This document shows positions 18,097 through 59,010 of a stretch of DNA of 64,000 bases, piece after piece. The notes beneath the pieces were generated by a model, which was not told where the DNA came from, did no database searches, and saw only the letters and a list, made by a program, of their open reading frames with translations. Made by a program: the position numbers and the translations under genes. This DNA is from Pristiophorus japonicus (lineage: Eukaryota), in contig NC_091991.1 in NCBI RefSeq assembly GCF_044704955.1, positions 55,242,001 through 55,306,000 on the forward strand. Reading direction: 5' to 3'. The stretch's first letter is position 1. Each line of letters opens with the position of its first letter.

Positions 18097-19044
18097 ATGG
18101 CAGGAGAGCTCGGTCACGTGATATGCTCCTCCTGTACCATGTGGGAACTCAAGGACACTTCCGGTGTCCCTGACGACTACGTGTGCAGGAAGTGTATCCG
18201 CCTCCAGCCCCTGACGGTCCGCGTTGCGGAATTGGAGCTGAGGGTGGATTTACTCTGGAGCATTCACGATGTTGAGAATGACGTGAGTAGCACGTGTAGT
18301 GAGTTGGTCTTACCGCAGGTGAAGGTTCCACAGCCAGCTAGGGAATGGGAGACCAGCAGGAAGAGCAGTGCAAGGAAGGTAGTGCAGGGGTCCCCTGCGG
18401 TCAACCCCCTGCAAAACAGATACACTGCTTTGAGTACTGTTGAGGGGGATGACTCATCAGGGGAGGGCAGCAGCAGCCAAGTTCATGGCACCGTGGCTGG
18501 CTCTGTTGCACAGGAGGGCAGGAAAAAGAGTGGGAGAGCGATAGTGATAGGGGATTCAATTGTAAGGGGAATAGATAGGCGTTTCTGCGGCCGCAACCGA
18601 GACTCCAGGATGGTATGTTGCCTCCCTGGTGCAAGGGTCAAGGATGTCTCGGAGCGGGTGCAGGACATTCTGAAAAGGGAGGGAGAACAGCCAGTTGTCG
18701 TGGTGCACATTGGTACCAACAACATCGGTAAAAAAAGGGATGAGGTCCTACGAGACGAATCTAAGGAGCTAGGAGCTAAATTAAAAAGTAGGACCTCAAA
18801 AGTAGTAATCTCGGGATTGCTACCAGTGCCACGTGCTAGTCAGAGTAGGAATCGCAGGATAGTGCAAATGAATATGTGGCTTGAACAGTGGTGTAGCAGG
18901 GAGGGATTCAAATTCCTGGGGCATTGGAACTGGTTCTGGGGGAGGTGGGACCAGTACAAACCAGACGGTCTGCACCTGGGCAGGACCGGAACCAATGTCC
19001 TAGGGGGAGTGTTTGCTAGTGCTGTTGGGGAGGAGTTAAACTAA
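18097..19044 (+). CDS. CR1 ORF1p: zinc finger/leucine zipper + SGNH esterase domain, open
   Basis: CSSC..CRKC, heptad VAELELRVDLL, GDSIVRG, PGA, HIGTN, DGLH. Confidence 0.9.
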   Translation: MAGELGHVICSSCTMWELKDTSGVPDDYVCRKCIRLQPLTVRVAELELRVDLLWSIHDVENDVSSTCSELVLPQVKVPQPAREWETSRKSSARKVVQGSPAVNPLQNRYTALSTVEGDDSSGEGSSSQVHGTVAGSVAQEGRKKSGRAIVIGDSIVRGIDRRFCGRNRDSRMVCCLPGARVKDVSERVQDILKREGEQPVVVVHIGTNNIGKKRDEVLRDESKELGAKLKSRTSKVVISGLLPVPRASQSRNRRIVQMNMWLEQWCSREGFKFLGHWNWFWGRWDQYKPDGLHLGRTGTNVLGGVFASAVGEELN

Positions 19045-19385
19045 TATGGCAGGGGGATGGGAACCAATACAGGGAGACAGAGGGAAACAAAATAGAGACA
19101 GAAGCAAAAGACAGAAAGGAGATGAGTAAAAGTGGAGGGCAGAGAAACCCAAGGCAAAAAACAAAAAGGGCCAATGTACAGCAAAATTCTAAAGGTCAAA
19201 GTATAATAAAAAGGCAAGCCTGAAAGCTCGGTGCCTCAATGCGAGGAGTATTCGGAACCCAGGAGAGGGCTCTGAGCTAGTTAGAGTGGGTGAGAGCGCA
19301 GATGAACAGGACCCCAAGAAAGAATGCAAAAGGCAGGAGTCAACAGAGCAGAGTAGCACTGGGGTAAGTGTAAACCACAAGGTGA

Positions 19386-20761
19386 CCTCAGTAGTGGGTA
19401 AAATGATGGAATCAATTATTAAGGATGTCATAGCAGTTCATTTGGAAAGAGGTGACATGATAGGTCCAAGTCAGCATGGATTTGTGAAAGGGAAATCATG
19501 CTTGACAAATCTTCTGGAATTTTTTGAGGATGTTTCCAGTAGAGTGGACAAGGGAGAACCAGTTGATGTGGTATATTTGGACTTTCAGAAGGCTTTCGAC
19601 AAGGTCCCACACAAGAGATTAATGTGCAAAGTTAAAGCACATGGGATTGGGGGTAGTATGCTGACATGGATTGAGAACTGGTTGTCAGACAGGAAGCAAA
19701 GAGTAGGAGTAAATGAGTACTTTTCAGAATGGCAGGCAGTGACTACCGCAAGGTTCTGTGCTAGGGCCTCAGCTGTTTACACTGTACATTAATGATTTAG
19801 ACGAGGGGATTAAATGTAGTATCTCCAAATTTGCGGATGACACTAAGTTGGGTGGCAGTGTGAGCTGCGAGGAGGATGCTATGAGGCTGCAGAGTGACTT
19901 GGATAGGTTAGGTGAGTGGGCAAATGCATGGCAGATGAAGTATAATGTGGATAAATGTGAGGTTATCCACTTTGGTGGTAAAAACAGAGAGACAGATTAT
20001 TATCTGAATGGTGACAGATTAGGAAAAGGAGAGGTGCAACAAGACCTGGGTGTCATGGTGCATCAGTCATTGAAGGTTGGCATGCAGGTACAGCAGGCAG
20101 TTAAGAAAGCAAATGGCATGTTGGCCTTCATAGCGAGGGGATTTGAGTACAGAGGCAGGGAGGTGTTGCTACAGTTGTACAGGGCCTTGGTGAGGCCACA
20201 CCTGGAGTATTGTGTACAGTTTTGGTCTCCTAACTTGAGGAAGGACATTCTTGCTATTGAGGGAGTGCAGCGAAGGTTCACCAGACTGATTCCCAGGATG
20301 GTGGTACTGACCTATCAAGAAAGACTGGATCAACTGGGCTTGTATTCACTGGAGTTCAGAAGAATGAGAGGGGACCTCATAGAAACGTTTAAAATTCTGA
20401 CGGGTTTAGACAGGTTAGATGCAGAAAGAATGTTCCCAATGTTGGGGAAGTCCAGAACCAGAGGTCACAGTCTAAGGATAAGGGGTAAGCCATTTAGGAC
20501 CGAGATGAGGAGAAACTTCTTCACCCAGAGAGTGGTGAACCTGTGGAATTGTCTACCACAGAAAGTTGTTGAGCCCAATTCACTAAATATATTCAAAAGG
20601 GAGTTAGATGAAATCGTTACTACTAGGGGGATCAAGGGGTATGGCGAGAAAGCAGGAAGAGGGTACTGAAGTTGCATGTTCAGCCATGAACTCATTGAAT
20701 GGCGGTGCAGGCTAGAAGGGCCGAATGGCCTACTCCTGCACCTATTTTTCTATGTTTCGAT
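19386..20761 (+). mobile_element. 5'-truncated CR1 family A inserted into the chimeric CR1
   Basis: Near-identical to 3985-5350; GTGA duplicated at 19382-19385 and 20762-20765; removing it restores the frame NHKV-IGRDN. Confidence 0.88.
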
Positions 20762-23051
20762 GTGATAGGAAGGGACAATATGTATGAATATAAAGGGGCT
20801 GCAGGAGGGGTCAAAACTAAAAATCATGGTTTAAAAGCTAGTATTAAAACACTTTACCTAAACGCACGCAGCATTCGAAATAAAGTAAATGAGTTGACGG
20901 CACAAATCATTACAAATGGGTATGATTTGGTGGCCATTACAGAAACATGGTTGCAGGGTGGCCAAGACTGGGAATTAAACATACAGGGGTATCTGACAAT
21001 TCAGAAGGATAGACAAGAAGGGAAAGGAGGTGGGTAGCTCTGTTAATACAGGATGATATCAGGGCAGTTGTGAGAGATGATATTGGCTCTAATGAACAAA
21101 ATGTTGAATCATTATGGGTGGAGATTAGAGATAGTAAGGGGAAAAAGTCACTGGTGGGCGTAGTTTATAGGCCCCCAAATAATAACTTCACGGTGGGGCG
21201 GGCAATAATCAAGGGAACAATGGAGGCATGTGAAAAAGGAACGGCAGTAATCATGGGGGATTTTAACCTACATATCGATTGGTCAAATCAAATCGCACAG
21301 GGTAGCCTGGAGGAGGAATTCATAGAATGCATATGGGATTGTTTCTTAGAACAGTATGTTACAGGACCTACAAGGGAGCAAGCTATCTTAGATCTGGTCC
21401 TGTGTAATGTGACAGGAATAATAAACGATCTCCTAGTAAAAGATCTTCTCGGAATGAGTGATCACAGTATGGTTGAATTTGTAATACAGATTGAGGGTGA
21501 GGAAGTAGTGTCTCAAACGAGCATACTATGCTTAAACAAAGGGGACTACAGTGGGATGAGGGCAGAGTTAGCTACAGTAGACTGGGAACACAGACTAAAC
21601 GGTGGCACAATTGAGGAACAGTGGAGGACTTTTAAGGAGCTCTTTCATAATGCTCAACAAAAATATATTCCAGTGAAAAAGGAGGGCGGTAAGAGAAGGG
21701 CTAACCAGCCGTGGATAACCAAGGAAATAAAGGAGAGTATCAAATTAAAAACCAAGCGTATAAGGTGGCCAAGGTTAGTGGGAAACTAGAAGATTGGGAA
21801 AATTTTTAACGACAGCAAAGAATGACTAAGAAAGCAATAAAGAAAGGAAAGATAGATTACGAAAGTAAACTTGCGCAAAACATAAAAACAGATAGTAAAA
21901 GCTTTTACCGATATATAAAACGGAAAAGACTGACTAAAATAAATGTTGGTCCTTTCGAAGATGAGAAGGGGGATTTAGTAATGGGAAATGTGGAAATGGC
22001 TGAGACCTTAAACAATTATTTTGCTTCGGTCTTCACAGTGGAAGACACAAAAACCATGCCAAAAATTGCTGGTCACGGGAATGTGGGAAAGGAGGACCTT
22101 GAGACAATCACTATCACTAGGGAGGTAGTGCTGGACAGGCTAATGGGACTCAAGGTAGACAAGTCCCCTGGTCCTGATGAAATGCATCCCAGGGTATTAA
22201 AAGAGATGGCAGAAGTTATAGCAGATGCATTCATTATAATCTACCAAAATTCTCTGGACTCTGGGGAGGTACCAGCGGATTGGAAAGCAGCTAATGTAAC
22301 GCCTCTGTTTTAAAAAGGGGGCAGACAAAAGGCAGGTAACTATAGGCCTGTTAATTTAACATCTGTAGTGGGGAAAATGCTTGAAGCTATCATTAAGGAA
22401 GAAATAGTGGGACATCTAGATAGGAATAGTGCAATCAAGCAGACGCAACATGGATTCATGAAGGGGAAATCATGTTTAACTAATTTACTGGAATTCTTTG
22501 AGGATATAACGAGCATGGTGGATAGAGGTGTACCGATGGATGTGGTGTATTTAGAGTTCCAAAAGGCATTCGATAAGGTGCCACACAAAAGGTTACTGCA
22601 GAAGATAAAGGTACGCGGAGTCAGAGGAAATGTATTAGCATGGATCGAGAATTGGCTGGCTAACAGAAAGTAGAGAGTCGGGATAAATGGGTCCTTTTCA
22701 GGTTGGAAATCGGTGGTTAGTGGTGTGCCACAGGGATCGGCGCTGGGACCACAACTGTTTACAATATACATAGATGACCTGGAAGAGGGGACAGAGTGTA
22801 GTGTAACAAAATTTGCAGATGACACAAAGATTAGTGAGAAAGCGGGTTGTGTAGAGGACACAGAGAGGCTGCAAAGAGATTTAGATAGGTTAAGCGAATG
22901 GGCCAAGGTTCGGCAGATGGAATACAATGTCGGAAAATGTGAGGTCATCCACCGTGGGAAAAAAAAACAGTAAAAAAGGGAATATTATTTGAATGGGGAG
23001 AGATTACAACATGCTGCGGTGCAGAGGGACCTGGGGGTCCTTGTGCATGAA

Positions 23052-23476
23052 ACTCTTTTAGAGTCTACCTGCAAAAACATAAAACATTAAATCGTGCCAC
23101 CCGACCTGGGTGACACACCAGACATTTACAAGGCCCTTTTTTCCTTTTTTTTTTTTTTTGAGTTTTTCTTTTTTTTTTGGGCACTAAAATCACAATTTTC
23201 CAGTGCCCCCTATAAAAGGGAAGGGGACACTAAAAGCACTGGCATTTAAAACAAATTAAACTTTAAAACGTAAAATCAAATTAAAATTTGGTTGCCGGGC
23301 GTGATGATGCACTCCAGTCCCTCCGGTGCCCACCTCTCGCGGAAGGCCGCGAGCGTACCGGTGGACACCGCATGCTCCATCTCCAAGGACACCCTGGACC
23401 GGATGTAAGAGCGGAAGAGAGGCAGGCAGTCAGGTTGAACGACCCCCTCGACCGCCCGCTGCCTGGACCGGCTGAT
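23052..23476 (-). mobile_element. Short Tx1-like (L1 clade) retrotransposon copy 1, antisense in CR1 ORF2
   Basis: Encodes ISRSRQRAVEG..DCLPLFRSYIRSRVSLE..LAAFRERWAPEGLECIITPGNQILI*, resembling a Tx1 ORF2 C-terminus; A-rich 3' UTR; flanked by 14-bp direct repeats TCCTTGTGCATGAA. Confidence 0.72.
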
Positions 23477-23490
23477 TCCTTGTGCATGAA

Positions 23491-23945
23491 ACTCTTTTGA
23501 GTTCACCTGTGAAAACATAAAAACAATAAACGGTGCCACCCGACCTGGGTGACACTCCAGACATTTTCAAGGCCCTTTTTTTCCCCCCTTTTTTTTTGGT
23601 TTTTTTTTGTGTTTTTCTTTTTTTTTTTTTTGTTTTTTTTTTTGGGGCACTAAAATCACAATTTTCCCCAGTGTCCCCTATAAAAGGGAAGGGGGACACT
23701 AAAAGCACCGGCAATTAAAACAAATTAAACTTTAAAACGTAAAATCAAATTAAAATTTGGTTGCCGGGCGTGATGATGCACTCCAGTCCCTCCGGTGCCC
23801 ACCTCTCGCGGAAGGCCGCGAGCGTACCGGTGGACACCGCATGCTCCATCTCCAAGGACACCCTGGACCGGATGTAAGAGCGGAAGAGAGGCAGGCAGTC
23901 AGGTTGAACGACCCCCTCGACCGCCCGCTGCCTGGACCGGCTGAT
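23491..23945 (-). mobile_element. Short Tx1-like retrotransposon copy 2, tandem at the same target
   Basis: Same 5' endpoint and coding part as copy 1, divergent 3' terminus; target repeats at 23477-23490 and 23946-23959. Confidence 0.72.
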
Positions 23946-25989
23946 TCCTTGTGCATGAATCCCAAAAAGTTAGTTTGCAGGTGCAGCAGGTAATCAGGAA
24001 GGCAAATGGAATGTTGGCCTTCAATGCGAGAGGGATGGAGTACAAAAGCAGGGAGGTCCTGCTGCAACTGTACAGGGTATTGGTGAGGCCGCACCTGGAG
24101 TACTGCGTGCAGTTTTGGTCACCTTACTTCAGGAAGGATATACTAGCCTTGGAGAGGGTACAGAGACGATTCACTAGGCTGATTCCGGAGGTGAGGGGGT
24201 TACCTTATGATGATAGATTGAGTAGACTGGGTCTTTACTCGTTGGAGTTCAGCAGGATCAGGGGTGATCTTATAGAAACATTTAAAATAATGAAAGGGAT
24301 AGACAAGATAGAGGCAGAGGTTGTTTCCACTGGTCGGGGAGACTAGAACTAGGGGGCACAGCCTCAAAATACGGGGGAGCCAATTTAAAACCGAGTTGAG
24401 AAGGAATTTCTTCTCCCAGAGGGTTGTGAATCTGTGGAATTCTCTGCCCAAGGAAGCAGTTGAGGCTAGCTCATTGAATGTATTCAAATCACAGATAGAT
24501 AGATTTTTAACCAATAAGGGAATTAAGGGTTATGGGGAGCGGGCGGGTAAGTGGAGTTGAGTCCACGGCCAGATCAGCCATGATCTTGTTGAATGGCGGA
24601 GCAGGCTCGAGGGGCTAGATGGCCTACTCCTGTTCCTAATTCTTATGTTCTTATGTCGGAACCGGGCCATTTAACATTTCATCTAATTATAGATTATAAG
24701 CATTAATTTCCTTGTGTTGTCTGTCTTAAGCTGCTTTATGATTTCACAAAGCAGCAGAGCTTTGCGATCACTGTGACATCAGCTTTTATTCTTGAATTAT
24801 AAAAGCCACATAGAAATTGATTTTTTTTTGGTAAGTGAAATGCACTTAATATCTTGTATAGTCCAGGTTATGGCATTACAATAATTTGCTATTACTATGA
24901 TGTAAAAGGTCTGCAACAATAACAAAATGTCACAATAAATTCTTAACTGGCGGAAAAGAAATACTATAAATGGAAGCATCACCAACCTTTAAGCACCATA
25001 TTTTTAATTTAAAAAAGGTCAACTCCAGTTTAATTTGAAAAACTGACAGATAAAAATATTAAACATAAACAGCACACAGAATTGTCAGTTAAAATAACTC
25101 CATCCGAAGGTTCCTGCAGCTGTTTATCCCTTTAAAACAGCATAAAACGAAATTCATAATAGTTCAATGTCCTTATTTCTACAATTTGGGTACCGAAGTC
25201 TTAAGCATGAACAGTGGAATTACAATTTGCAATACCTCTACTACGAATAGCAACTGAGCCACAAGATTAACATTAACTATATCAGCAATCACTGGGGTAC
25301 AGTTGTTTAACATCTCATTCAACAATTTACATTCATAGCAGCAGGGAAAGTGCAATTAGGGAAAGTGTCCAACAGTACACATTCAAAAGGTCAATTTTGA
25401 AAAAGCTTTTGAAGACGTGGAAAGAATTCGCAAGCCGAGGAGCCACTCACTCACCGAGCCAGACATCTAAAATAAATCTAGTTTTGAACGAGGAACTATA
25501 CCTGATATCCATTTTCTTAGAACAGTTGAGGATTGTGCGAGTTGAAATAACTCCACAGTACAAAACTGTAATTTTCAATAAGATACAATATGATTCTGTA
25601 ATATTTATTGTAAATGGATTTATTAACAAGGTCTTTTCTAAAGTGAGCAGAGGAGCAGAAGACTACGTAACACATTTGCTTTCAATATGCCAAGTACAAA
25701 TGAACTTTATGTCGTAAATTAACACAAAAGATAAACTGAAAGTAAAGAGGAAAAGGTCCCATCCTCAGCCTTTCCCGTTTGTTATGCACCGACAAATCTT
25801 CAAAAAATACACCAAAAGTAGAAAAGGAAATCAGTACTGTTCAAAAGAGGATTTTGTCCTAAAATGCGCAACGCCATCTGATGTGTGTTTGCAACAAACA
25901 GCCCTCTATATTGCACACACTGTAAAGTCCACATATCTCATTTGGAGATGAATTACAGATTTTGCCCAAAATGCCATCTGATCAAACAC

Positions 25990-26405: not shown

Positions 26406-29400
26406 TGATCCGTCCTTACTATACAGTATAAATGCACACGAGGCCCATGCTTGAGAGAAGATCAGTCTGTGACCTGTCATTTATTCCTTCGCACTCAAGT
26501 GATGAAGGTGGGTGGAGCTTCCCCTTTTATACCTGAAGGTCCAGGTTAGGAGTGTCTCCCACCTAGTGGTCATTGTTCTCACAGTGTACAACTTAGGTCA
26601 GATTATACATGGGTTACAATGCTGGTTGAATACATGACATCACCTCCCCCCAAAGTCTTATTGCGATCACAGGTTGAGTCTCTCTGGTGATTTACGCTCT
26701 CTTGTAGAGCGCCTGAGTTGGGGTTCCGGTTGTTGGGCGCTGGCCTGAGTATCTGCTGTTTGCGGTGCCTCAGGCCTATCCAGACTGCCCACAGTGATTG
26801 GGCTCTCCTCTCTTTGGTTCCGGTGTTCGGTCACCTGTGGTGGAGTGAACTCTACATCGTGTTCTTCCTCTGCTTCTTCTATGGGGTTGCTGAACCAACT
26901 TTTTGTTTGATCCACATGTTTGCGGTAGATTTGTCCATTGGTAAGTTTAACTACCAGAATCCTATTTCCCTCTGGCAATCACAGTGCCTGCGAGCCATTT
27001 GGGCCCTGCAGCGTAGTTGAGGACAAAAACAGGATCATTTACATCAATACATCGCGCCCTCGCATTCCTGTCATGGTAGTCATATTGGTCATATTGTGGC
27101 TGGCGCCTGCTCTCGACAATTTCTTTCATGGTGAGGTGTATAAGGGATAGCCGGGTTTTGAGCATCCTTTTCATTAGCAGCTCGGTGGGTGGAACGCCTG
27201 TGAGCGAGTGTGGTTGGGATCTATAGGCCAACAGGAGACGTGATAATCAGGTTTGTAGGGAACCTCCTTGGCTTCTGAGCATCCCCCGTTTGATTATCTG
27301 CACTGCTCGTTCTGCCTGGCCATTTGAGGCCAGCTTGAACGGTGCCGTTCTGACATGGTTAATTCCATTGCCTGCTATGAAGTCCTGGAATTCACTGCTT
27401 GTGAAGCACGGGCCATTGTCGCTGACCAAGACGCCCGGTAAACCGTGGGCGGCGAACATTGCCCATAGACTTTCTACCATGGCAGAGGCTGTGCTTGAAT
27501 TTAAAATGACACACTCGATCCATTTGGAGTAGGCGTCTACTACAACCAAAAACATTTTTCCCATGAAAGGACCTGCGTAGTCCACTTGGATGCGTGACCA
27601 AGGCTTGGCGGGCCATGGACTAAGGGGGGCTTCCCTGGGCGCATTGCCCAGCTGGGCACACGTGTTGCACCTGCGAACACAAAGTTCCAGATCTGCGTCT
27701 ATCCCTGGCCACCAAACCTGTGACCTGGCAATTGCCTTCATCATGACAATGCCCAGGTGCTCATTGTGGAGTTCTCTGATGAACACCTCTCTGCCCATCT
27801 GGGGCATGACTACGCGGTTTCCCCACAGTAGGCAATCGGCCTGAATCGAGAGTTCATCCCTGCGCCTGTGAAATGGTTTAAATTCCTCAGGGATGCCCTG
27901 TACGTGGCTGCCCAGTCCCCATTCAAGACACATTTCTTGACTAGAGACAATAGCGGGTCTCTATTTGTCCAGACTTTAATCTGACGGGCTGTCACGGGTG
28001 AGCCTTCGCTTCCGAAAGCTTCAACAGCCATGACCATCTCAGCAGCATGCTCGGTAGCCCCCTCAGTGGTGGCTAGTGGGAGCCTGCTGAGTGCATCGGC
28101 GCAGTTTTCGGTGCCCGGTCTGTGCCGAATTGTGTAGTCATAGGCGGCTAACGTGAGTGCCCACCTCTGCATGTGGGCCGATGCGTTTGCATTTATGGCC
28201 TTGTTATCGGCCAAAAGGAACGTTAGGGGTTTGTGATCTGTCTCCAGCTCAAACTTCCTGTCAAACAGGTACTGGTGCATTTTCTTTACAGCATATACAC
28301 ATGCAAGTGCCTCCTTTTCTACCATCCCGTAACCCCTTTCTGCCTGGGACAGACTCCTCGAGGCATAAGCTACCGGCTGTAACTGACGCTTGACATTGAC
28401 ATGCTGCAACACACACCCGACACCATAGGACGACGCATCGCATGTTAACACTATACGACCCATGTAAGAAACTTGTGTTAACAGAGTGTTGGAACATAAC
28501 AAATTGCGTGCTCTATTAAAAGCCCATTCCTGGCTGTCCCCCCCAGACCCATTCGCGACCTTTGCGTAGGAGCACGTGTAGCGGCTCTAGCAGCGTGCTC
28601 AATTTGGAAGAAAGTTACCAAAATAGTTCAGGAGCCCCAGGAACAAACGCAGCTCCGTCGTGTTACGGGGTCTGGGTGCTCTCTGGATCGCTTCCGTCTT
28701 GGACGCAGTAGGGCTGATCCAGTCTGCTGCTATCCTCATCCCCAGGAATTCTACCTCTGGAGCTAGGAAGACACACTTCGCCTTTTTCAGTCGCAGCCCT
28801 AACCGGTACAGTCTGCGTAGCACCTCCTCCAGGTTATGGAGGTGTTCTTCAGTATCGTAACCGGTGATGTGGATGTCGTCCTGAAAAACCACCGTCCCTG
28901 GAATCGACTTGAGGAGGCTTTCCATATTTCGGGAAGATCGCGGCGGCCGAGCGAATCCCGAACGGACATCTGTTGTACTCAAACAACCCCTTGTGTGTCG
29001 TGATGGTGGTCAGCTTCTTCGACTCACTCGCCAGCTTCTGGGTCATGTAAGCTGAGGTCAGGTCCAAATTTGAAAAAGGTTTGCCACCGGATAGCGTCGC
29101 AAAGAGGTCCTCCGCTCTCGGTAGCGGGTACTGGTCTTGGAGTGACACCCGATTGATGGTGGCCTTGTAATCACCACATATCCTGACCCATCCGCCTTCA
29201 CCGGCACGATCAGGCTCGCCCAGTCACTGAATTCGACTGGCGAGATGATGCCTTCCCTCAGCAGGCGGTCCAATTCACCTTCTATCTTTTCCCGCATCAC
29301 GTACGGCACCTCTCTGGCCTTGTGGTGTATTGGCCTGGCGTCCGGGTTTATGTGAATCACTACCTTGGCCCCCATTAAAGTGCCGATGCCGGGTTGAAAT

Positions 29401-32563: not shown

Positions 32564-35500
32564 TATTGTGTTCCTAACAAAGATGAGGCTGCACACAGGG
32601 AGGTTAAAGTAACAGTGACAGTCTTTAATAAGACACTCCAGAGTGAGGAACAGGCTTTAGGGGCCAGCTTATATACAGTGCTCCCAAGGGATGCTGGGAT
32701 CCCTTGGGACTTCCGGGGATGAGCTCCCTGGTAGCGGAACATGGGAGTGCATGCTTTACAGATACACAACATCACTTCCCCTCCAAAGTCAAAATGAAAA
32801 CTATTTACAAGGTGGTCGAGAGCCTTTCTTTCCCTGGTGGATCGCCTCGGTACAAATGTCAGTTCTGGTGTATTGGCTGTGCCCTCGCTGGGCTGGCATG
32901 TTGTTGGCCGTGCAGGGCTGCTAGGTGAGCCTGGCCTTGCTGGGCTGTTGGACGTGATGGGTTCGATTTCCTGGTCCGGCGTGGTGTCGTTGATCCTTTG
33001 GATGTGTGTTGTGGGCTCGAAAAAGGTGGTGCCTGCTGTGGGTTGATCAGGGCAGTCTGTGAACCACAACCTCGTTTGGTCCAGGTGCTTTCTGCAAATG
33101 TTTCCATTGTCTAGTTTGACTACAAACACCCTAACTCCCTTCTTTAGGTATCACCATGCCCGCGATCCACTTGGGACCATGTCCATAGTTTAGCACATAC
33201 ACAGGGTCATTCAGATCAATTTCCCATGACACAGTGGCGCGACCATCGTTTACATTTTGTTGCTGCCGCCTGCTCTCTACCTGATCATGCAGGTTGGGGT
33301 GAACCAGCGAGAGTCTGGTTTTAAGTGTCCTCTTCATGAGTAGCTCAGCCGGGGGCACCCCTGTGAGCGAGTGGGGTCTCGTGCGGTAGCTGAGCAGTAC
33401 TCAGGGCAGGCGGATTTGGAGTGAGCCTTCTGTGACTCGTTTAAGGCTCTGTTTGATGATTTGTACTGCCCGCTCTGCCTGCCCATTGGAGGCTGGTTTA
33501 AACAGGGCCGAGGTGACATGTTTGATCCCATTGCGGGTCATGAATTCTTTAAATTCGGCACTGATGAAACATGGCTTGTTGTCACTGACCAGTATCTCAG
33601 GTAGGCCATGGGTGGCAAACATGGCCCTCAGGCTTTCAATGGTGGCGGTGGTGGTGCTTCCCGACATTATTTCACATTCAATCCATTTTGAAAAAGCATC
33701 CACCACCGCCAGGAACATTTTACTGAGAAACGGGCCCACATAGTCGACAGGATACTCGACCATGGTCTGGAGGGCCAGGACCACAAACTTAGTGGTGCCT
33801 CTCTGGGTGGGTTGCTCAACTGAGCACATACGCTGCGTTGCCGTACACAGGACTCTAAGTCAGAGTCGATACCGGGCCACCACACGTGGGATCTGGCTAT
33901 CGCTTTCATCATTACTATACCCGGGTGTGTGCTGTGGAGATCAGAGATGAATATCTCCCTGCCCTTTATTGGTAGCACTATGTGGTTACCCCACAACAGA
34001 CAGTCTGCCTGAATGGACAGCTCGTCCTTTCGCCGCTGGAACGGCTTGATTGGCTCTTGCATTTCAACGGCCCAGCTCCCATGCAGTACACAGTTTTTTT
34101 TACTTGGTACAGCAAAGGATCTTGGCTGGTCCAAGTCCTAATCTGGCGGGCTGTGACAGGCGATTTATTATTTTCAAACGTTTCCATGACCATCAACAAG
34201 TCTGTGGGTTGCGCCATTTCCACCCCCGTGGTGGGCAACGGTAGCCGACTGAGAGCATCCGCACAGTTCTCGGTGCCTGGCCTGTGGCGGATGGTATAGC
34301 TATACGCTGATAGCGCGAGTGCCCACCTTTGTATGCGGGCTGAGGCATTAGTATTTATCCCCTTGTTTTCAGCGAACAGGGATGCGAGGGGCTTGTGATC
34401 GGTTTCCAGCTCAAATTTGAGGCCAAACAGGTACTGATGCATTTTCTTTACCTCGAACACACAAGCTAATGCCTCTTTCTCAATCATGCTGTAGGTCCTC
34501 TCGGCCTTAGACTAGCTCCTGGAGGCATAGGCGACAGGTTGCAACTTCTCCGCAACGTTAGCTTGTTGTAATACACACCCGACTCCGTACGACGACGCGT
34601 CACATGCTAGCACAAGTCTTTTACACAGGTTATACAATACAAGCAGCTTGTTGGAGCATAAAATGTTTCTGGCTTTCTCAAAAGCAATTACTTGTTTTTT
34701 TCTCCATACCCAGTTCTCACCTTTGCGCAATAACACATGTAGGGGCTCTAAAAGGGTGCTTAACCCCGGTAGGAAGTTACCAAAATAGTGGAGGAGTCCC
34801 AGGAACGACCGCAGCTCCGTGACATCCTGTGACCTGGGCAGGTTCCTGATAGCCTCTGTCTTGGCGTCTGTGGGCCGAATGCATCCGCCGCGATCTTTCT
34901 CCCCAAAAACTCCACTTCTGTTACCATGAAGACGCATTTTGACCTCTTCAGCCGCAGCCCTACGCGATCCAGTCACTGGAGGACCTCCTCCAGGTTTTGT
35001 AGGTGCTCGACGGTGTCCCGACCCGTGACCAATATGTCATCTTGAAAGACCTCCATGTGTGGTACCGACTTGAGTAGGCTCCCCATGTTTCTCTGGAAGA
35101 TCGCTGCAGCCGACCGAATTCCAAACGGGCATCTGTTGTAGATGAACAGTCCCTTGTGCGTGTTGATGCAGGTGAGGCCCTTCAAAGACTCCTCCAGCTC
35201 GTGTGTCATGTAGGCCGAAGTCAGGTCGAGCTTGGTGAATGTCTTGCCTCCTGCCAGCGTCGCAAATAGGTCATCTGCCTTAGGTAGCGGGTATTGGTCC
35301 TGTAGCGAGAAACGATTAATAGTTACTTTATAATTGCCGTAAATCCTGACCGTGCCATCACTTTTGAGTACTGGAACAATCGGGCTGGCCCACTCACTGA
35401 ATTCCACTGGGGAGATGATGCGAAGGCAGCCTGTCCAACTCGATTCCCACTTTCTCCCTCATCATGTGAGATACTGCTCGCGCCTTGTGGTGAATGGGTC

Positions 35501-37181
35501 GTGCCTCTGGGACCAAGTGGATCCGCACCTTCGCCCCAGAAAAGTTTCCAATGCCTGGCTCAAAAAGGAAAGGAAAGGCCTCATCGACATGTGATAGCGC
35601 TCAGATGTCATCTCAGTTCCAGCAGATTTTGCCCAGCCAGCTCCTTCCAAGCAGTGTGGGGCCATCGCCCGGGACAATCCAGAGTGGCAGTTCGTGCACC
35701 GTGCCCTCGTAGGTGACCTTGACCATGGCGCTGCCCAGGACAGTGATTAGCTCTTTGGTGTACGTTCTCAGTTTCGTGTGGATGGGGTCAGGACTGGTCT
35801 GAATGCTTTGTTGCACCACAGTCTCTCAAACATATTTTTACTCCTGATGGATTGGCTAGCACCAATGTCCAGTTCCATGGCTATGGGTAAGTCATTCAAT
35901 TTTATGTTTAGCATTAAAGGTGGACATTTCGTCGAAAATGTGTGCACTCCATGTACTTCAGCATCTGCCTCCTCTCTCTGAGGCTCGAAATTGCTTTGAT
36001 CCACCATGGACCGATCTTCCTCTGCCACGTGGTGGTTAGCAGGTTTTGCAGAGCTTGCAGCTTGTTTGCAAGCTCGTTGGAGTTGCCCCATTGTTACATC
36101 CATCCATCGGTACACCTCTATCCACCATGCTCGTTATATCCTCAAAGAATTCCAGTAAGTTAGTTAAACATGATTTCACAGCTCTTGCAAACATACCCTT
36201 TGAAGTGGCATGAATCGGCTGAATGGAAGCCTCCACAACATCAACAAGGTGTGAATTGCCTTGCATTCATCCTTTGTTGGGGACTCAGTCATCTGCGTCA
36301 CCTGAGGCCTGCTGGCAGTTGCAGACTCGTGGGTTCTGCCCTGTACATTTCTGCTCGCAAACACAGTTCCAGTTAAGTTATGAACACTGCTTGCACTTGT
36401 GTGCCGAGAGATTTGTTTGGTGTTATCACTGGTGGACATAAACGCTTGTGCTATCGCAATGGCCTTACTGAGGATCGGTGTCTCTACAGTCAAAAGTTTT
36501 CGTAGGATGGTCTCCTGGCCAATGCCCAGTATAAAAAAAGTCTCTGAGCATTTGCTCCAGGTAGCCATCAAACTCACATTATCCTGCAAGTCGCCTTAGC
36601 TCGGCGACGTAGCTCACCACTTCCTGACCTTCAGATCGCTGGCACGTGTAGAACCGATACCTCGCCATCAGCACGCTCTCCCTCGGGTTAAGATGTTCCC
36701 GAATCAGTGTACACAGCTTCTCATATGATTTATCTGTGGGTTTCACCAGAGCCAGAAGATTCTTCATGAGGCTGTAGGTCAGTGCCCTGCAGACTGTGAG
36801 GAGGACCGCTCTCCTTTTTGCAGCGCTTCCTTCTCCATCCAGTTCATTGGTGACAAAGTACTGGTCTAGCCGTTTGACATAGCCTTCCCAGTCCTCACCC
36901 TCCGAGAACTTCTCCAGGATGCCCACAGTTTGCTGCATCTTTGCGTTGGATTCGTATTCTCGTCGCCAGTTATTGTGTTCCTAACACAGATGAGGCTGCA
37001 CACAGGGAGGTTAAAGTAACAGTGACCTCAGTCTTTAATAAGACACTCCAGAGTGAGGAACAGGCCTTCGGGGCTGGCTTATATACAGTGCTCCCAAGGG
37101 ATGCTGGGATCCCTTGGGACTTCAGGTGATGAGCTTCTTGGTGGCGGAACATGGGAGTGCATGCTTTACAGATACACAACA
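32564..37181 (-). mobile_element. Ty3/Gypsy (Mag-like) LTR retrotransposon, full structure but disrupted
   Basis: LTRs at 32564-32771 and 36971-37181; 5-bp TSD GACTG; PBS TGGCGACGAG (tRNA-Ser-like); gag from 36938, then protease, RT (FQDD), RNase H, integrase. Confidence 0.95.
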
Positions 37182-43764: not shown

Positions 43765-46531
43765 TATAAGAATTAGGAACAGGAGTAGGCCATCTAGCCC
43801 CTCGAGCCTGCTCCGCCATTCAACACGATCATGGCTGATCTGGCCGTGGACTCAGCTCCACTTACCCGCCCGCTCCCCATAGCCCTTAACTCCCTTATTA
43901 GTTAAAACTCTATCTATCTGTGACTTGAATACATTCAATGAGCTAGCCTCAACTGCTTCCTTGGGCAAAGAATTCCACAGATTCACAACCCTCTGGGAGA
44001 AGAAATTCCTTCTCAACTCGGTTTTAAATTGGCTCCCCCGTATTTTGAAGCTGTACCCCCTAGTTCTAGTCTCCCCGACCAGTGGAAACAACCTCTCTAT
44101 CTCTATCTTGTCTATCCCTTTCATTATTTTAAATGTTTCGATAAGATCACCCCTCATCCTTCTGAACTCCAATGAGTAAAGACCCAGTCTACTCAATCTA
44201 TCATCATAAGGTAACCCCCTCATCTCCGGAATCAACCTAGTGAATCGTCTCTGTACCCCCTCCAAAGCCAGTATATCCTTCCTTAAGTAAGGCGACCAAA
44301 ACTGCACGCAGTACTCCAGGTGCGGCCTCACCATTACCCAATACAGTTGCAGAAGGACCTCCCTGCTTTTGTACTCCATCCCTCTCGCAATGAAGGCCAA
44401 TATTCCATTCGCCTTCCTGATTACCTGCTGCACCTGCAAACTAACTTTTTGGGATTCATGCACAAGGACACCCAGGTCCCTCTGCACCGCAGCATGTTGT
44501 AATTTCTCCACATTCAAATAGTATTCCCTTTTTTTGTTTATTTTCCCCAAGGTGGATGACCTCGCACTTTCCGACATTGTATTCCATCTGCCAAACCTTA
44601 GCCCATTCGCTTAACCTATCTAAATCTCTTTGCAGCCTCTCTGTGTCCTCTACACAACCCGCTTTCCCACTAATCTTTGTGTCATCTGCAAATTTTGTTA
44701 CACTACACTCTGTCCCCTCTTCCAAGTCATCTATGTATATTGTAAACAGTTGTGGTCCTAGCACCGATCCCTGTGGCACACCACTAACCACTGATTTCCA
44801 ATCCGAAAAGGACCCATTATCCCGACTCTCTGTTTTCTGTTAGCCAGCCAATTCTCTATCCATGCTAATACATTTCCACTGACCCCGCGTACCTTTATCT
44901 TCTGCAGTAACCTTTTGTGTGGCACCTTATCGAATGCCTTTTGAAAATCTAAATACATCACATCCATCGGTACACCTCTATCCACCATGCTCGTTATATC
45001 CTCAAAGAATTCCAGTAAATTAGTTAAACATGATTTCCCCTTCATGAATCCATGATGCGTCTGCTTGATTGTATTATTCCCATCTAGATGTCCCGCTATT
45101 TCTTCCTTAATGATAGCTTCAAGCATTTTCCCCACTACAGATGTTAAACTAACCGGCCTATAGTTACCTGCCTTTTGTCTGCCCCCTTTTTTAAACAGAG
45201 GCGTTACATTAGCTGCTTTCCAATCCGCTGGTACCTCCCCAGAGTCCAGAGAATTTTTGTAGATTATAACGAATGCATCTGCTATAACTTCCGCCATTTC
45301 TTTTAATACTCTGGGATGCATTTCATCAGGACCAGGGGACTTGTCTACCTTGAGTCCCATTAGCCTGTCCAGCACTACCCCCCTAGTGATAGTGATTGTC
45401 TCCAGGTTCTCCCTTCCCACATTCCTGTGACCAGCAATTTCTGGCATGATTTCTGTGTCTTCCACTGTGAAGACCGAAGCAAAATAATTGTTTAAGGTCT
45501 CAGCCATTTCCACATTTCCCATAATTAAATCCCCCTTCTCATCTTCTAAGGGACCAACATTTACTTTAGTCACTCTTTTCCGTTTTATATATCTGCAAAA
45601 GCTTTTACTATCCGTTTTTATGTTTTGCGCAAGTTTACCTTCGTAATCTATCTTTCCTTTCTTTATTGCTTTCTTAGTCATTCTTTGCTGTCGTTTAAAA
45701 TTTTCCCAATCTTCTATTTTCCCACTAACCTTGGCCACCTTATACGCATTGGTTTTTAATTTGATACTCTCCTTAATTTCCCTGGTTATCCACGGCTGGT
45801 TATCCCTTCTCTTACCGCCCTTCTTTTTCATTGGAATATATTTTTGTTGAGCACTATGAAAGAGCTCCTTAAAAGTCCTCCACTGTTCCTCAATTGTGCC
45901 ACCGTTTAGTCTGTGTTTCCAGTCTACTTTTGCCAACTCTGCCCTCATCCCACTGTAGTCCCCTTTGTTTAAGCATAGTATGCTCGTTTGAGACACTACT
46001 TCCTCACCCTCAATCTGTATTACAAATTCAACCATACTAAGATCACTCATTCCGAGAGGATCTTTTACAAGATCGTTTATTATTCCTGTCTCATTACACA
46101 GGACCAGATCTAAGATAGCTTGCTCCCTTGTAGGTTCTGTAACATACTGTTTTAAGAAACAATCCCGTATGCATTCTATGAATTCCTCCTCCAGGCTACC
46201 CCGTGCGATTTGATTTGACCAATCGATATGTAGGTTAAAATCCCCCATGATTACTGCCATTCCTTTTTCACATGCCTCCATTATTTCCTTGATTATTGCC
46301 CGCCCCACCGTGAAGTTATTATTTGGGGGCCTATAAACTACGCCCACCAGTGACTTTTTCCCCTTACTATCTCTAATCTCCACCCACAATGGTTCAACAT
46401 TTTGTTCATTAGAGCCAATATCGTCTCTCACAACTGCCCTGATATCATCCTTTATTAACAGAGCTACCCCACCTCCTTTCCCTTCTTGTCTACCTTTCCG
46501 AATCGTCAGATACCCCTGTATGTTTAATTCC
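43765..46531 (-). mobile_element. CR1 family B, 5'-truncated, frameshifted ORF2
   Basis: ORFs 44758-46431, 44456-44791 and 43852-44577; highly similar to 20970-24656; carries an unoccupied TTCATGCACAAGGA site at 44455-44468. Confidence 0.93.
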
Positions 46532-46879
46532 CATGCAGTACTTGCCTGAGTGGGTTTCCCTATTCATCGCCATCTGCTGCACAACCTGGCCATCATGAGG
46601 GCACAGCCATTTCCACCAGGCATAGCTGCACCACCTCAGGAGAAGGAACAAGAGCAGTAACAGCCGCAAGGAGGTCCGCAAACATCTCATCAGAGTTCGT
46701 TTCCACTGATTTCTATCCCACTTCCTGTAGACGTCCTCACATCAATTAGCCCTTCCATACCAAAGCCCCACGACTGAAATGAGAGACTACAGCAAACATC
46801 AACATTTATCATACAACAATAAAATGTATAACTGTGTATTTATTCATCACCCTTGTGAATTTCCTTTTTTGTTGAACTG

Positions 46880-56620: not shown

Positions 56621-56884
56621 TTTCAAGCAATGGAGGTGCTACAATTTTTGGGAGGGATGTGTGTGTAGCGTGTGCTTGATCATAGTCCATTTACATCTGC
56701 TGGAAAAATAAACACACATTGCTGGACAGAGTTGGAGTCAGCCACAAGAAAAATGTAATCTTTTCTACAAGGTACACTTTATGGAACCTTTAAAAGGCAA
56801 TAGTACAAGAATTTATCTAGGAATGAGTGTGAACTTCAAATTCAGTTGGAGGGTGAGAAAGTTAGTTCTCAAACCATAGTCCTA

Positions 56885-59010
56885 AGCTTAAATAAAAGGA
56901 GACTACAAAGGTATGAGGGCAGAGTTGGCTAAAGTGGACTGGGAAAATAGATTAAAGTATGGGACGGTTGATGAGCAGTGGCAGACAGTTGAGAAGATAT
57001 TTCATAACTCGCAACAAAAATATATTCCAATGAGAAGGAAAGACTGCAAGAGAAGGGATAACCATCCATAGCTAACTAAGGAAATAAGGGATGGTATCAA
57101 ATTGAAAACAAGGGCATACAATGTGGCCAAGATTAGTGGGAGGCCAGAGGATTGGGAAATTTTGAAAAGCCAACAAAGAACGAGTAAAAAAAAAAGAGGG
57201 GAAAGATAGATTATGAAAGTAAACTAGCACGAAATATAAAAACAGATCGTAAGAGTTTCTACAGATACATAAAAAGAAAAAGAGTGGCTAAAGTAAATGT
57301 TGGTCCCCTAGAGGATGAGACTGGGGAATTAATAATGGGGAACAGGGAAATGGCAGAGACGTTGAACAAATATTTTGTATCGGTCTTCATAATCAAGGGG
57401 CTATAGGGAGGGAGGAACTTAATACAATCACTATCACTAATGAAGTAGTACTCGGTAAAATAATGGGATTAAAGGCGGACAAGTCTCTTGGACCTGATGC
57501 TTTACAGCCTAGGGTCTTGAGAAGTGGCTGCAGAGATAGTGGATGCATTGGTTGTAATCTACCAAAATTCCCTGGATTCTGGGACAGTCCCAGCAGATTG
57601 GAAAACCGCAAATGTAATGCCCCTATTTAAAAAAGGAGGCAGACAAAAAGCAGGAAACTATAAATGAGTTACCCAACATCTGTCGTTGGGAAAATGCTGG
57701 AGTCCATTATTAAGGAAGCAATATGAGACATTTGGAAAAGCATGATTCAATCAAGCAGAGTCAGCATGGTTTTATGAAAGGGAAATCATGTTTGACAAAT
57801 TTGCTGGAGTTCACTGAGGATGTAACAAGCAGGGTGGATAAGGGGGAACCAGTGGATGTGGTATATTTAGATTTCCAGAAGGCATTCGATAAGGTGCCAC
57901 ATAAAAGATAAAAGTTCACAGGGTTGGGGGCAATATATTAGCAAGGATAGAGGATTGGCGAACTATCAGGAAACAGAGAGTCGGGATAAATGGGTCATTT
58001 TCAGGTTGGCAAACAGTGACTAGCGGGGTGCCACAGGGATCGGTGCTGGGTCCTTAACTATTTACAATCTATAATAATGACTTGGATGAAGGGACCAAAT
58101 GTAATGTAGCCAAGTTTGCTGATGATACAAAGATGACTGGGAAAGCAAATTGTGAGGAGGACACAAAGAATCGGCAAAGGGATATAGAGGGACTAAGTGA
58201 GTGGGCAAAAATTTGGCAGATGGAGTATAATGTGGGAAAATGTGAGGTGATCCACTTTGGCAGAAATAATAGAAAAGCAAATTATAAATTAAATGGAGAA
58301 AAATTGCAAAGTGCTGCAGTACAGAGGGACCTGGGGATCTTTGTGCATGAAACACAAAAAGTTAGTATGCAGGTACAGCAAGTAATCAGGAAGGCAAATG
58401 GAATGTTGGCCTTTATTGTAAGGGGGATAGAATATAAAAGCAGAGAAGTCCTGCTATAACTATATAGGGTATTGGTAAGGCCACACCTGGAGTACTGCGT
58501 ACAGTTTTGGTCTCCATATTTAAGGAAGGATATACTTGCATTGGAGGCTGCTCAGAGAAGGTTCACTAGGTTGATTCCAGAGATGAGGGGGTTGACTTAT
58601 GAAGGTAGGTTGAGCCCATACAGTTTGGAGTTCAGGTGATCTTATTGAAACATATAAGATAATGAGGGGGATCAACAAGGTGGATGCAGAGAGGATATTT
58701 CCACGCAGGGGACATAGTCTCAGAATAAGGGACCGCCCATTTAAAATTGAGATGAAGAGTAATTTCTTCTCTGAGGGTTGTAAATCTATGGAATTCTCTG
58801 CCCCAGAAAGCTGTGACGGCTGGGTCATTGAATATATTTAAGGTGGAGATAGACAGATTTTTGAGCGATAAGGGAGTAAAGGGTTGTGAGGAGTGGGCAG
58901 GGAAGTGGAGCTGAGTCCATGATCAGATCCGCCATGATCTTATTGAATGTCGGAGCAGGCTCGAGGGGCCAAATGGCTGCCTTCTGCTCCTATTTCTTAT
59001 GTTCTTATGT
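56885..59010 (+). mobile_element. CR1 LINE, older degenerate copy (in the presumed RHNO1 intron 1)
   Basis: KSCLTNLLEF, YLDFQKAFDKV, KFADDTK, (TTCTTATG)n tail. Confidence 0.9.

Follow-up and report, generated by a model that had tools for sequence, protein, structure and literature searches.

Tx1L, a long interspersed nuclear element (LINE) of Xenopus laevis, targets the DNA transposon Tx1D (PMC4494074, PMC1950540), and further site-specific Tx1 families are established, namely Keno, Kibi, Koshi and crocodilian families in Mariner, long terminal repeat (LTR) and Harbinger elements (PMC4494074). Here we analysed a 64,000-nucleotide stretch of the Pristiophorus japonicus genome (the window), in which two short Tx1-like inserts are stacked at one 14-bp site within a CR1 LINE. 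We conclude that the inserts belong to a Tx1L-clade LINE that is directed to this CR1 site and whose stacked copies probably owe their common starts to completion of each new cDNA on the copy already resident. The green algal L1-type LINEs Zepp and ZeppL also insert into LINE sequence, that of their own kind, and form clusters; by contrast, the target here is an unrelated LINE clade, entered at one fixed codon position.

Like Tx1L, the element has two open reading frames (ORFs), an endonuclease of the apurinic/apyrimidinic (APE) type and sequence-specific insertion into another transposon (PMC4494074, PMC1950540). Unlike Tx1L, it targets the coding region of a CR1 LINE, in antisense and with an approximately 14-bp duplication, and it has thousands of filled sites and long arrays. 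A site preference within another transposon (Mariner, LTR or Harbinger) is shared with crocodilian Tx1-Mar, Tx1-8_Crp/Tx1-4_AMi, Tx1-9_AMi and SINEU (PMC4494074), and tandem insertions around a target-site duplication are shared with SINEU-3 (Kojima 2015, PMC4494074), but none of the crocodilian Tx1 families named in the available text of that paper has a CR1 or other LINE target or a same-start rule. Drosophila R1 is likewise an APE-type site-specific LINE with a 14-bp target-site duplication and arrays growing at the 5′ duplication (Stage and Eickbush 2009, PMC2718515). It also resembles the present element in a precise target deletion from a co-transcribed upstream flank (melanogaster-type) and in a read-through 3′ flank; however, R1 belongs to a different clade and targets ribosomal DNA, and the available portion of that paper describes no inherited truncation point or multi-unit copying (PMC2718515). 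Annealed 5′ junctions have been reported for R2 (PMC11371274). CR1-group elements make up 22–34% of elasmobranch genomes according to a study whose accessible text leaves Tx1 unmentioned (PMC13343379). In the literature that we searched, with Repbase and most subscription papers outside it, we found neither a CR1-targeting Tx1 element nor an inherited truncation point; the supplements of PMC4494074 may list more targets.

The window array and its host

The sequence TCCTTGTGCATGAA occurs exactly at 23038–23051, 23477–23490 and 23946–23959 on the plus strand and once at 44455–44468 on the minus strand. With up to two mismatches allowed, six target matches were observed in the window versus 0.79 expected. 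The array and the related CR1 copies are made up as follows.

20969–23037, plus strand: 5′ part of the host CR1 LINE, covering the ORF2 endonuclease and reverse transcriptase (RT) region; 95% identical to the sister CR1
23038–23051, minus strand: target copy where the 3′ end of the array meets the host; it reads TTCATGCACAAGGA on the element strand and falls in the codons for DLGVLVHES, a motif of CR1 ORF2
23052–23476, minus strand: downstream unit (likely the older), a 5′-truncated Tx1-like copy of 425 bp; end of ORF2 at 23476–23276, then the 3′ untranslated region (UTR) with a terminal hairpin
23477–23490, minus strand: internal target copy between the two units, an exact site
23491–23945, minus strand: upstream unit (likely the younger), 5′-truncated, 455 bp; end of ORF2 at 23945–23745, with the same start base as the 425-bp unit
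23946–23959, minus strand: target copy where the 5′ end of the array meets the host, the junction that would be re-nicked
23960–24656, plus strand: 3′ part of the host CR1, up to its 3′ end; 95% identical to 44468–43766 of the sister
43766–46533, minus strand: sister CR1, from the young family to which the host belongs; its target at 44455–44468 is empty; Pfam RVT_1 and Exo_endo_phos_2 in its ORF
58338–58351, plus strand: homologous site with one mismatch, empty, in a more diverged CR1

The three exact sites, the two antisense inserts and their common start base had been described in an initial annotation made from the sequence alone, and all were confirmed at these coordinates. The start base is position 6754 of a 7183-bp reference copy, and the inserts correspond to positions 6754–7183 of the full-length element. 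On the minus strand, each contains the last 66 codons of a LINE ORF2, a stop codon and a 3′ UTR with an A-rich linker. As had been claimed, the coding halves are identical (0 differences in the first 201 nt, from the ORF2 C terminus to the stop) and the last 92 nt are separated by about 10 substitutions and 2 single-base gaps; outside the A-rich linker, the 3′ UTRs differ at 17 of 186 positions. The 3′ UTR of the upstream unit shows one or two changes relative to copies on other contigs, and that of the downstream unit differs at no fewer than 7 positions from its nearest sampled copy.

The site is single and empty in the sister CR1, again as annotated, and host and sister are 95% identical on either side of it. 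The target lies in frame within the C-terminal DLGVLVHES motif of the host ORF2. The initial annotation also had the element inactivating CR1, which this locus does not demonstrate: the insertion splits the C-terminal coding region, yet the 5′ part of the host, which reaches somewhat further 5′, has an ORF interrupted by stops and frameshifts of its own. Pfam matched RVT_1 and Exo_endo_phos_2 in the ORF of the sister; the CR1 label itself follows the initial annotation and the motifs DLGV and the 3′ tail, by which the host is probably a CR1 element. In further CR1-like families in the window, the homologous site deviates from the target and is empty.

The element family and its target

Genome-wide counts throughout are exact-pattern matches on the 5.9-Gb assembly. 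A 30-mer from the insert had 15,776 matches and its reversed control had none, so that this young family has a high copy number, of at least 15,776. Full-length copies, retrieved around spaced matches of this 30-mer, are about 7.2 kb long and encode an ORF1 of 698 aa and an ORF2 of 1299 aa. Complete full-length units numbered 21 among 50 sampled loci, and both ORFs are open in six of the nine units of an approximately 60-kb array inside a single CR1 site. ORF1 contains a putative CCHC zinc knuckle, CHACREVGHVRKNC, and matched no Pfam family at E ≤ 0.001. In ORF2, Pfam identified Exo_endo_phos (residues 6–227) and RVT_1 (512–761), with a weak zf-RVT match below the cut-off. The structure model of the endonuclease, built from a 50-sequence alignment, reached a pLDDT of 95.5 and had the L1 endonuclease as its best fold match (TM 0.88); residues E38, D143, N145, D202 and H227 are unchanged across the 50 sequences. 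An Rfam search of 10 kb of sequence that includes the greater part of a full-length copy (L054) detected no structured RNA.

With a full-length partner retrieved and a tree built, the proposed membership in the Tx1 clade stood. Xenopus Tx1L is the closest named protein, with 50% identity over the full length of ORF2 and 64% in the RT domain. In a midpoint-rooted RT tree of 34 rows, from which one short-alignment row was dropped and which held no rows labelled Keno, Kibi, Koshi or Dewa, the element fell in a clade of nine rows (support 100/99) with Tx1L and turtle, sturgeon and stingray sequences, the nearest relative being a stingray sequence (77%). Among 52 collected 3′ UTR variants, the terminal hairpin closes only with the first target bases in all 51 that were scored, which suggests that the RNA reads through into the target.

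The element enters ORF2 of a young CR1 family at TTCATGCACAAGGA, in antisense orientation, and an approximately 14-bp duplication results. Of the first 30 copies, which include array units and local duplicates, 28 adjoin TTCATG(C/T)ACAAG. Genome-wide, 12,128 3′ ends adjoin the exact 12-mer, versus 16,584 3′ ends counted by a pattern that differs slightly. Among the first 100 3′ ends listed, 78 were at the exact site and 12 at mutated or clipped copies of it, which makes 90 at the CR1 site, where target-specific Tx1 families have been defined by more than 20% of flanks in one repeat (PMC4494074). Insertion is thus not random, and the CR1-site specificity put forward in the initial annotation was upheld. 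One of the remaining ten ends lay at a TTC close to the site, in a different CR1 family, and nine lay elsewhere; eight of these nine begin TTC, and most have own-site duplications of 11–15 bp. At CR1 sites, the duplication measured 13–16 bp at 20 of 28 measurable 5′ junctions, and 16 further loci had no intact flank–TTC junction (off-target, deleted or filled). Exact 26-mers counted 6,844 filled and 26,800 empty sites, so that about 20% are filled with duplicates retained. We regard it as close to certain that the window inserts are 5′-truncated copies of an autonomous, approximately 7.2-kb LINE of the Tx1L clade with this specificity.

At one off-target site (L084:7992–8607), two stacked units are parted by that site's own 11-bp duplication, and re-insertion therefore has no need of CR1 sequence.

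Starts of single and stacked copies

The 5′ junction of the window inserts has 22 occurrences, distributed over 11 places and 8 contigs; ten of the places are independent. The initial annotation had proposed a Tx1-derived, possibly non-autonomous element of fixed length; such an element would spread by read-through transcripts carrying the target at their 5′ end. The recurrence of the junction speaks for this reading, as does flank-guided 5′ joining within the family (the 240 copies with one deletion junction described below). However, the 31-nt stretch around the junction holds 204 5′ junctions and a control stretch 208, and other positions recur more: among the first 100 junctions listed, the window position appears 5 times and the position two bases upstream 35 times. 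Unit starts at the sampled loci form a continuum from 129 to 7124. The short-junction copies differ by 1.0% in their coding parts and by a median of 7.4% over the last 86 nt, which makes their 3′ ends as unlike as those of unrelated subfamilies, and full-length copies with both ORFs open are common. A fixed-length short element is thus largely refuted, and we consider it very unlikely; a truncation hot spot at the start of the window inserts was rejected on the same junction counts. The short copies are ordinary truncations with base preferences.

It is scarcely credible that the pattern reflects one old insertion that CR1 retrotransposition or segmental duplication has passively carried along, or an artefact of the assembly or of haplotypes. 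Local duplicates do exist (flanks 0.8–1% apart at L085–L089; L096 identical to C9b), and no read or contig piece spanned the window tandem among the four contig sets compared. These included a second sample of the same organism code, whose contigs cover the 3′ end of the element and the junction region; of the runs under other organism codes, two had only 19 and 2 near-identical contigs (possibly traces), and a third represents a more diverged relative in which the last 90 nt of the element are uncovered. Against this explanation, a median of 4.6% separates the CR1 flanks of the short-junction places, as in random CR1 pairs and with the exception of one duplicated pair, versus 1.0% for the coding part of the inserts, and 5′ ends are distributed over the entire element. 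Arrays with distinct units are present at 19 of the 50 sampled loci. Furthermore, 23 of 24 deletion-junction copies keep the 3′ end of the element, which CR1-driven copying would often cut. Passive carriage from one ancestral insertion, which the initial annotation had itself named as an outcome that would speak against it, is rejected on the flank and coding differences.

Stacked copies follow a rule of their own. At loci not picked by 5′ end, adjacent truncated units had a common start in 12 of 17 pairs, versus 2 of 703 cross-locus pairs, and in two junction listings all 28 neighbour clusters less than 1 kb apart had a common junction, as read off the listings. Their 3′ parts diverge: 42 of 45 same-start pairs differ at five or more UTR positions. 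The earlier claim that a simple tandem duplication does not easily explain the window pair was upheld. In the long same-start pairs (L107, L113, L122, L124, L128 and L131), the bodies are about 2–4% apart from 12–167 nt past the start, and one same-start pair is near-identical up to the UTR, with 9 private variants in common. The onset of divergence differs among pairs, and the switch point therefore varies. Odd junctions are repeated within arrays, as with TTCAAAA at L124 and, at C5:136M, an extra T together with a mini-insert. The repeated trimer of C5:54M has the form (a,b,full-x)(a,b,full-y), in which the a copies differ at 2 of 406 positions, the b copies at 1 of 406 and the full-length units x and y at 229 of 6,316; at C2:200M, a dimer is present three times and only the last UTR changes.

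Where the order of arrival is visible, at several loci, new units were added at the upstream (5′) junction, in agreement with the initial proposal of repeated insertion at a regenerated target. In one pair of duplicates that are 99.9–100% identical, one copy has an extra 3-kb unit at this junction. At A6, the target duplication includes the first bases of the downstream unit, and mini-inserts of 10–45 nt are found at 5′ junctions. Private mutations were richer in the downstream unit at 10 loci versus 2, with 11 ties (p = 0.04). L096 and L067, about 10 Mb apart on contig C9, are 99.9–100% identical over at least 7 kb and differ by one 3-kb insertion; either the stretch was duplicated very recently or the contig contains two haplotypes, and in both cases the insertion is recent.

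From these data, the common start of the two window inserts is likely to be an instance of a family-wide rule by which the start is inherited from the resident neighbour, and completion of the newcomer on the resident as template is the likely reading. By homology, the APE endonuclease would nick the CR1 sense strand after ...GTGCATGAA, and RT would copy the RNA from there; the RNA likely extends a few bases into the target, closing the terminal hairpin. At an empty site, the outcome is an approximately 14-bp duplication and a variable 5′ truncation, often at short microhomology. Later copies would join at the upstream junction, which retains the CR1 flank and the target, as observed at several loci. 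There, the new cDNA may pair with the homologous resident unit just downstream of the nick, at any point between the first bases of the resident and its 3′ UTR, and synthesis would return to the nick along the resident strand. A foreign RNA would then supply the 3′ part of the newcomer, and the resident array would supply its 5′ end, the junction and any units in between. On this reading, the newcomer in the window is the 455-bp upstream unit, whose 201 coding bases would have been copied from the 425-bp resident or matched to it.

Several points weigh against this reading. Most of the sampled loci lie within the initial 34 Mb of a single contig, and part of them were picked because their targets are non-exact or because they hold arrays. 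The asymmetry in age is weak, with 11 of 23 loci tied, and starts differ in 5 of the 17 truncated neighbour pairs. Plain duplicates occur among neighbours (3 of the 45 same-start pairs; a tetramer repeat at C11), and ordinary unequal exchange is therefore also at work. In the window, the 201 coding nucleotides are too conserved (median 1–1.5% between copies) to locate the switch, and the variant that the two units share, at position 6858, is a CpG change also present elsewhere. Finally, we infer the nick, the pairing with the resident and the flank annealing described below from junction anatomy.

These duplicates bear directly on another explanation, in which arrays arise by DNA-level tandem duplication, through unequal exchange between target copies, and cDNAs primed at internal targets later replace, as a separate event, the 3′ part of the unit lying upstream (gene conversion). 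Such a process formally yields identical sequences, the same 3 of 45 pairs have fewer than five UTR differences, and identical blocks are present in the C11, C5 and A2 arrays. However, the step from one unit to two would require exchange within 14 bp, or within only 4 bp at L124 (TTCAAAA), nearly every duplicate (42 of 45) would need later conversion, and the direct cases are additions at the 5′ junction. We therefore consider duplication followed by conversion unlikely and favour completion on the resident copy.

A single junction, at which 32 bp of CR1 flank are deleted, is common to 240 full-length-type copies at unrelated CR1s (for example L165:1025–1050; L133–L182). In 24 of these that we examined, the flanks differ by 4.5% and the element ORF2 by 2.8%, and 23 of the 24 reach the 3′ end of the element. 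The junction fits an RNA of one subfamily that carries co-transcribed upstream CR1 sequence and anneals through it to the target, which would produce the same deletion at all 240 loci. At the 5′ junctions of two truncated copies, we also observed tRNA-Val-like sequence (L076:8054–8255, overlapping a U2 match, and about 75 nt at L103), as if RT had switched to small RNAs.

A sister subfamily and what the family may reveal

A divergent 3′ UTR was present in 1 of the first 30 copies, and its motif had 289 matches. At 30 loci of this sister subfamily, TTGTAGAGCTGTTG (at most one mismatch) follows the 3′ end in 15. This target lies in a repeat of about 300 bp with the ends TGTAAT...ATT(A/G)CA and an AATAAA, which is LTR-like by its ends. 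Sister arrays also have common starts (6 units at L246, 5 at L244). The loci assigned to the subfamily are L183–L212, L235, L239, L242, L244 and L246. In many 3′ UTR variants, the last 8–11 nt are complementary to the CR1 flank immediately upstream of the nick (window 23960–23985), a complement absent from other abundant variants. The CR1 and LTR-like targets both have GCACCTG 17–18 nt upstream of the nick.

The two sister arrays first retrieved contained no full-length copy; 17 further stretches provided three sister endonucleases with 92–94% DNA identity to the main family. All three have R196, I201 and C66; V196 is present in every one of the remaining 56 reads, some of which come from the same arrays. 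In the structure model, residue 196 sits between two hairpin strands, and the hairpin aligns with the βB6–βB5 loop of L1, which has been implicated in target choice (PMC1950540). The hairpin loop is shorter than that of Tx1L (RPGVG versus RVRDGHV). The substitution V196R at the tip of the predicted DNA-binding hairpin is associated with the difference in target, a correlation from three sequences and no proof.

Alternatively, site choice could be made mostly by RNA–DNA pairing, through the read-through and the upstream CR1 flank, with an enzyme that needs little beyond TTC. In keeping with this, 80 of 80 3′ junctions in the retrieved set begin TTC, including 8 off-target units, the terminal hairpin reaches into target bases in every scored variant (51 of 51), and 23 of 52 variants contain 8–11 nt perfectly complementary to sequence in the 30 nt that precede the nick; read-through annealing has been proposed for R1 (PMC2718515). 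However, several abundant 3′ variants have a mere 5-nt complement, which is the chance level, and the complementarity was spotted after the fact. Moreover, the Tx1L endonuclease by itself nicks its target almost exclusively (PMC1950540), and hairpin residue 196 tracks target choice across the two subfamilies. Pairing as the main determinant of the site is in our view quite unlikely.

The window also contains other repeats. A tandem repeat with a period of about 20 bp occupies 186–1570, at the window start beside N stretches, and other LINE copies lie at 2052–5354, 18804–20763, 26905–29399, 33074–35564 and 56830–59010, among them an open frame of 997 codons at 2268–5261.

It is possible, and we suggest it tentatively, that all of this describes an undescribed Tx1 lineage: a sequence-specific parasite of another LINE clade with about one-fifth of its sites filled, in which cDNA invasion from a single nick duplicates up to 8 kb of array, and in which the target switched between CR1 and the LTR-like repeat through one or a few hairpin residues (V196R). 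If true, the two subfamilies would be a natural, nearly isogenic pair for studying LINE 5′ joining and sequence reading by APE endonucleases, both long-open questions. How LINE insertions are joined at their 5′ ends is not well understood, and a target that has been entered thousands of times provides a natural read-out of this step, in which the resident copy appears to set the start of the newcomer and may be copied wholesale. When the Tx1L hairpin was grafted onto the L1 endonuclease, specificity was not transferred (PMC1950540); the sibling endonucleases, so similar in sequence and with different 14-bp targets, are therefore a much cleaner test of specificity, with a bearing on RNA-based site-specific gene insertion. 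The weight of the finding rests on the array rule and on this sibling pair more than on the new target. For the genome that carries it, a LINE aimed at the coding region of the dominant LINE class also amounts to parasite-on-parasite control, with a load of about 20% of the exact sites.

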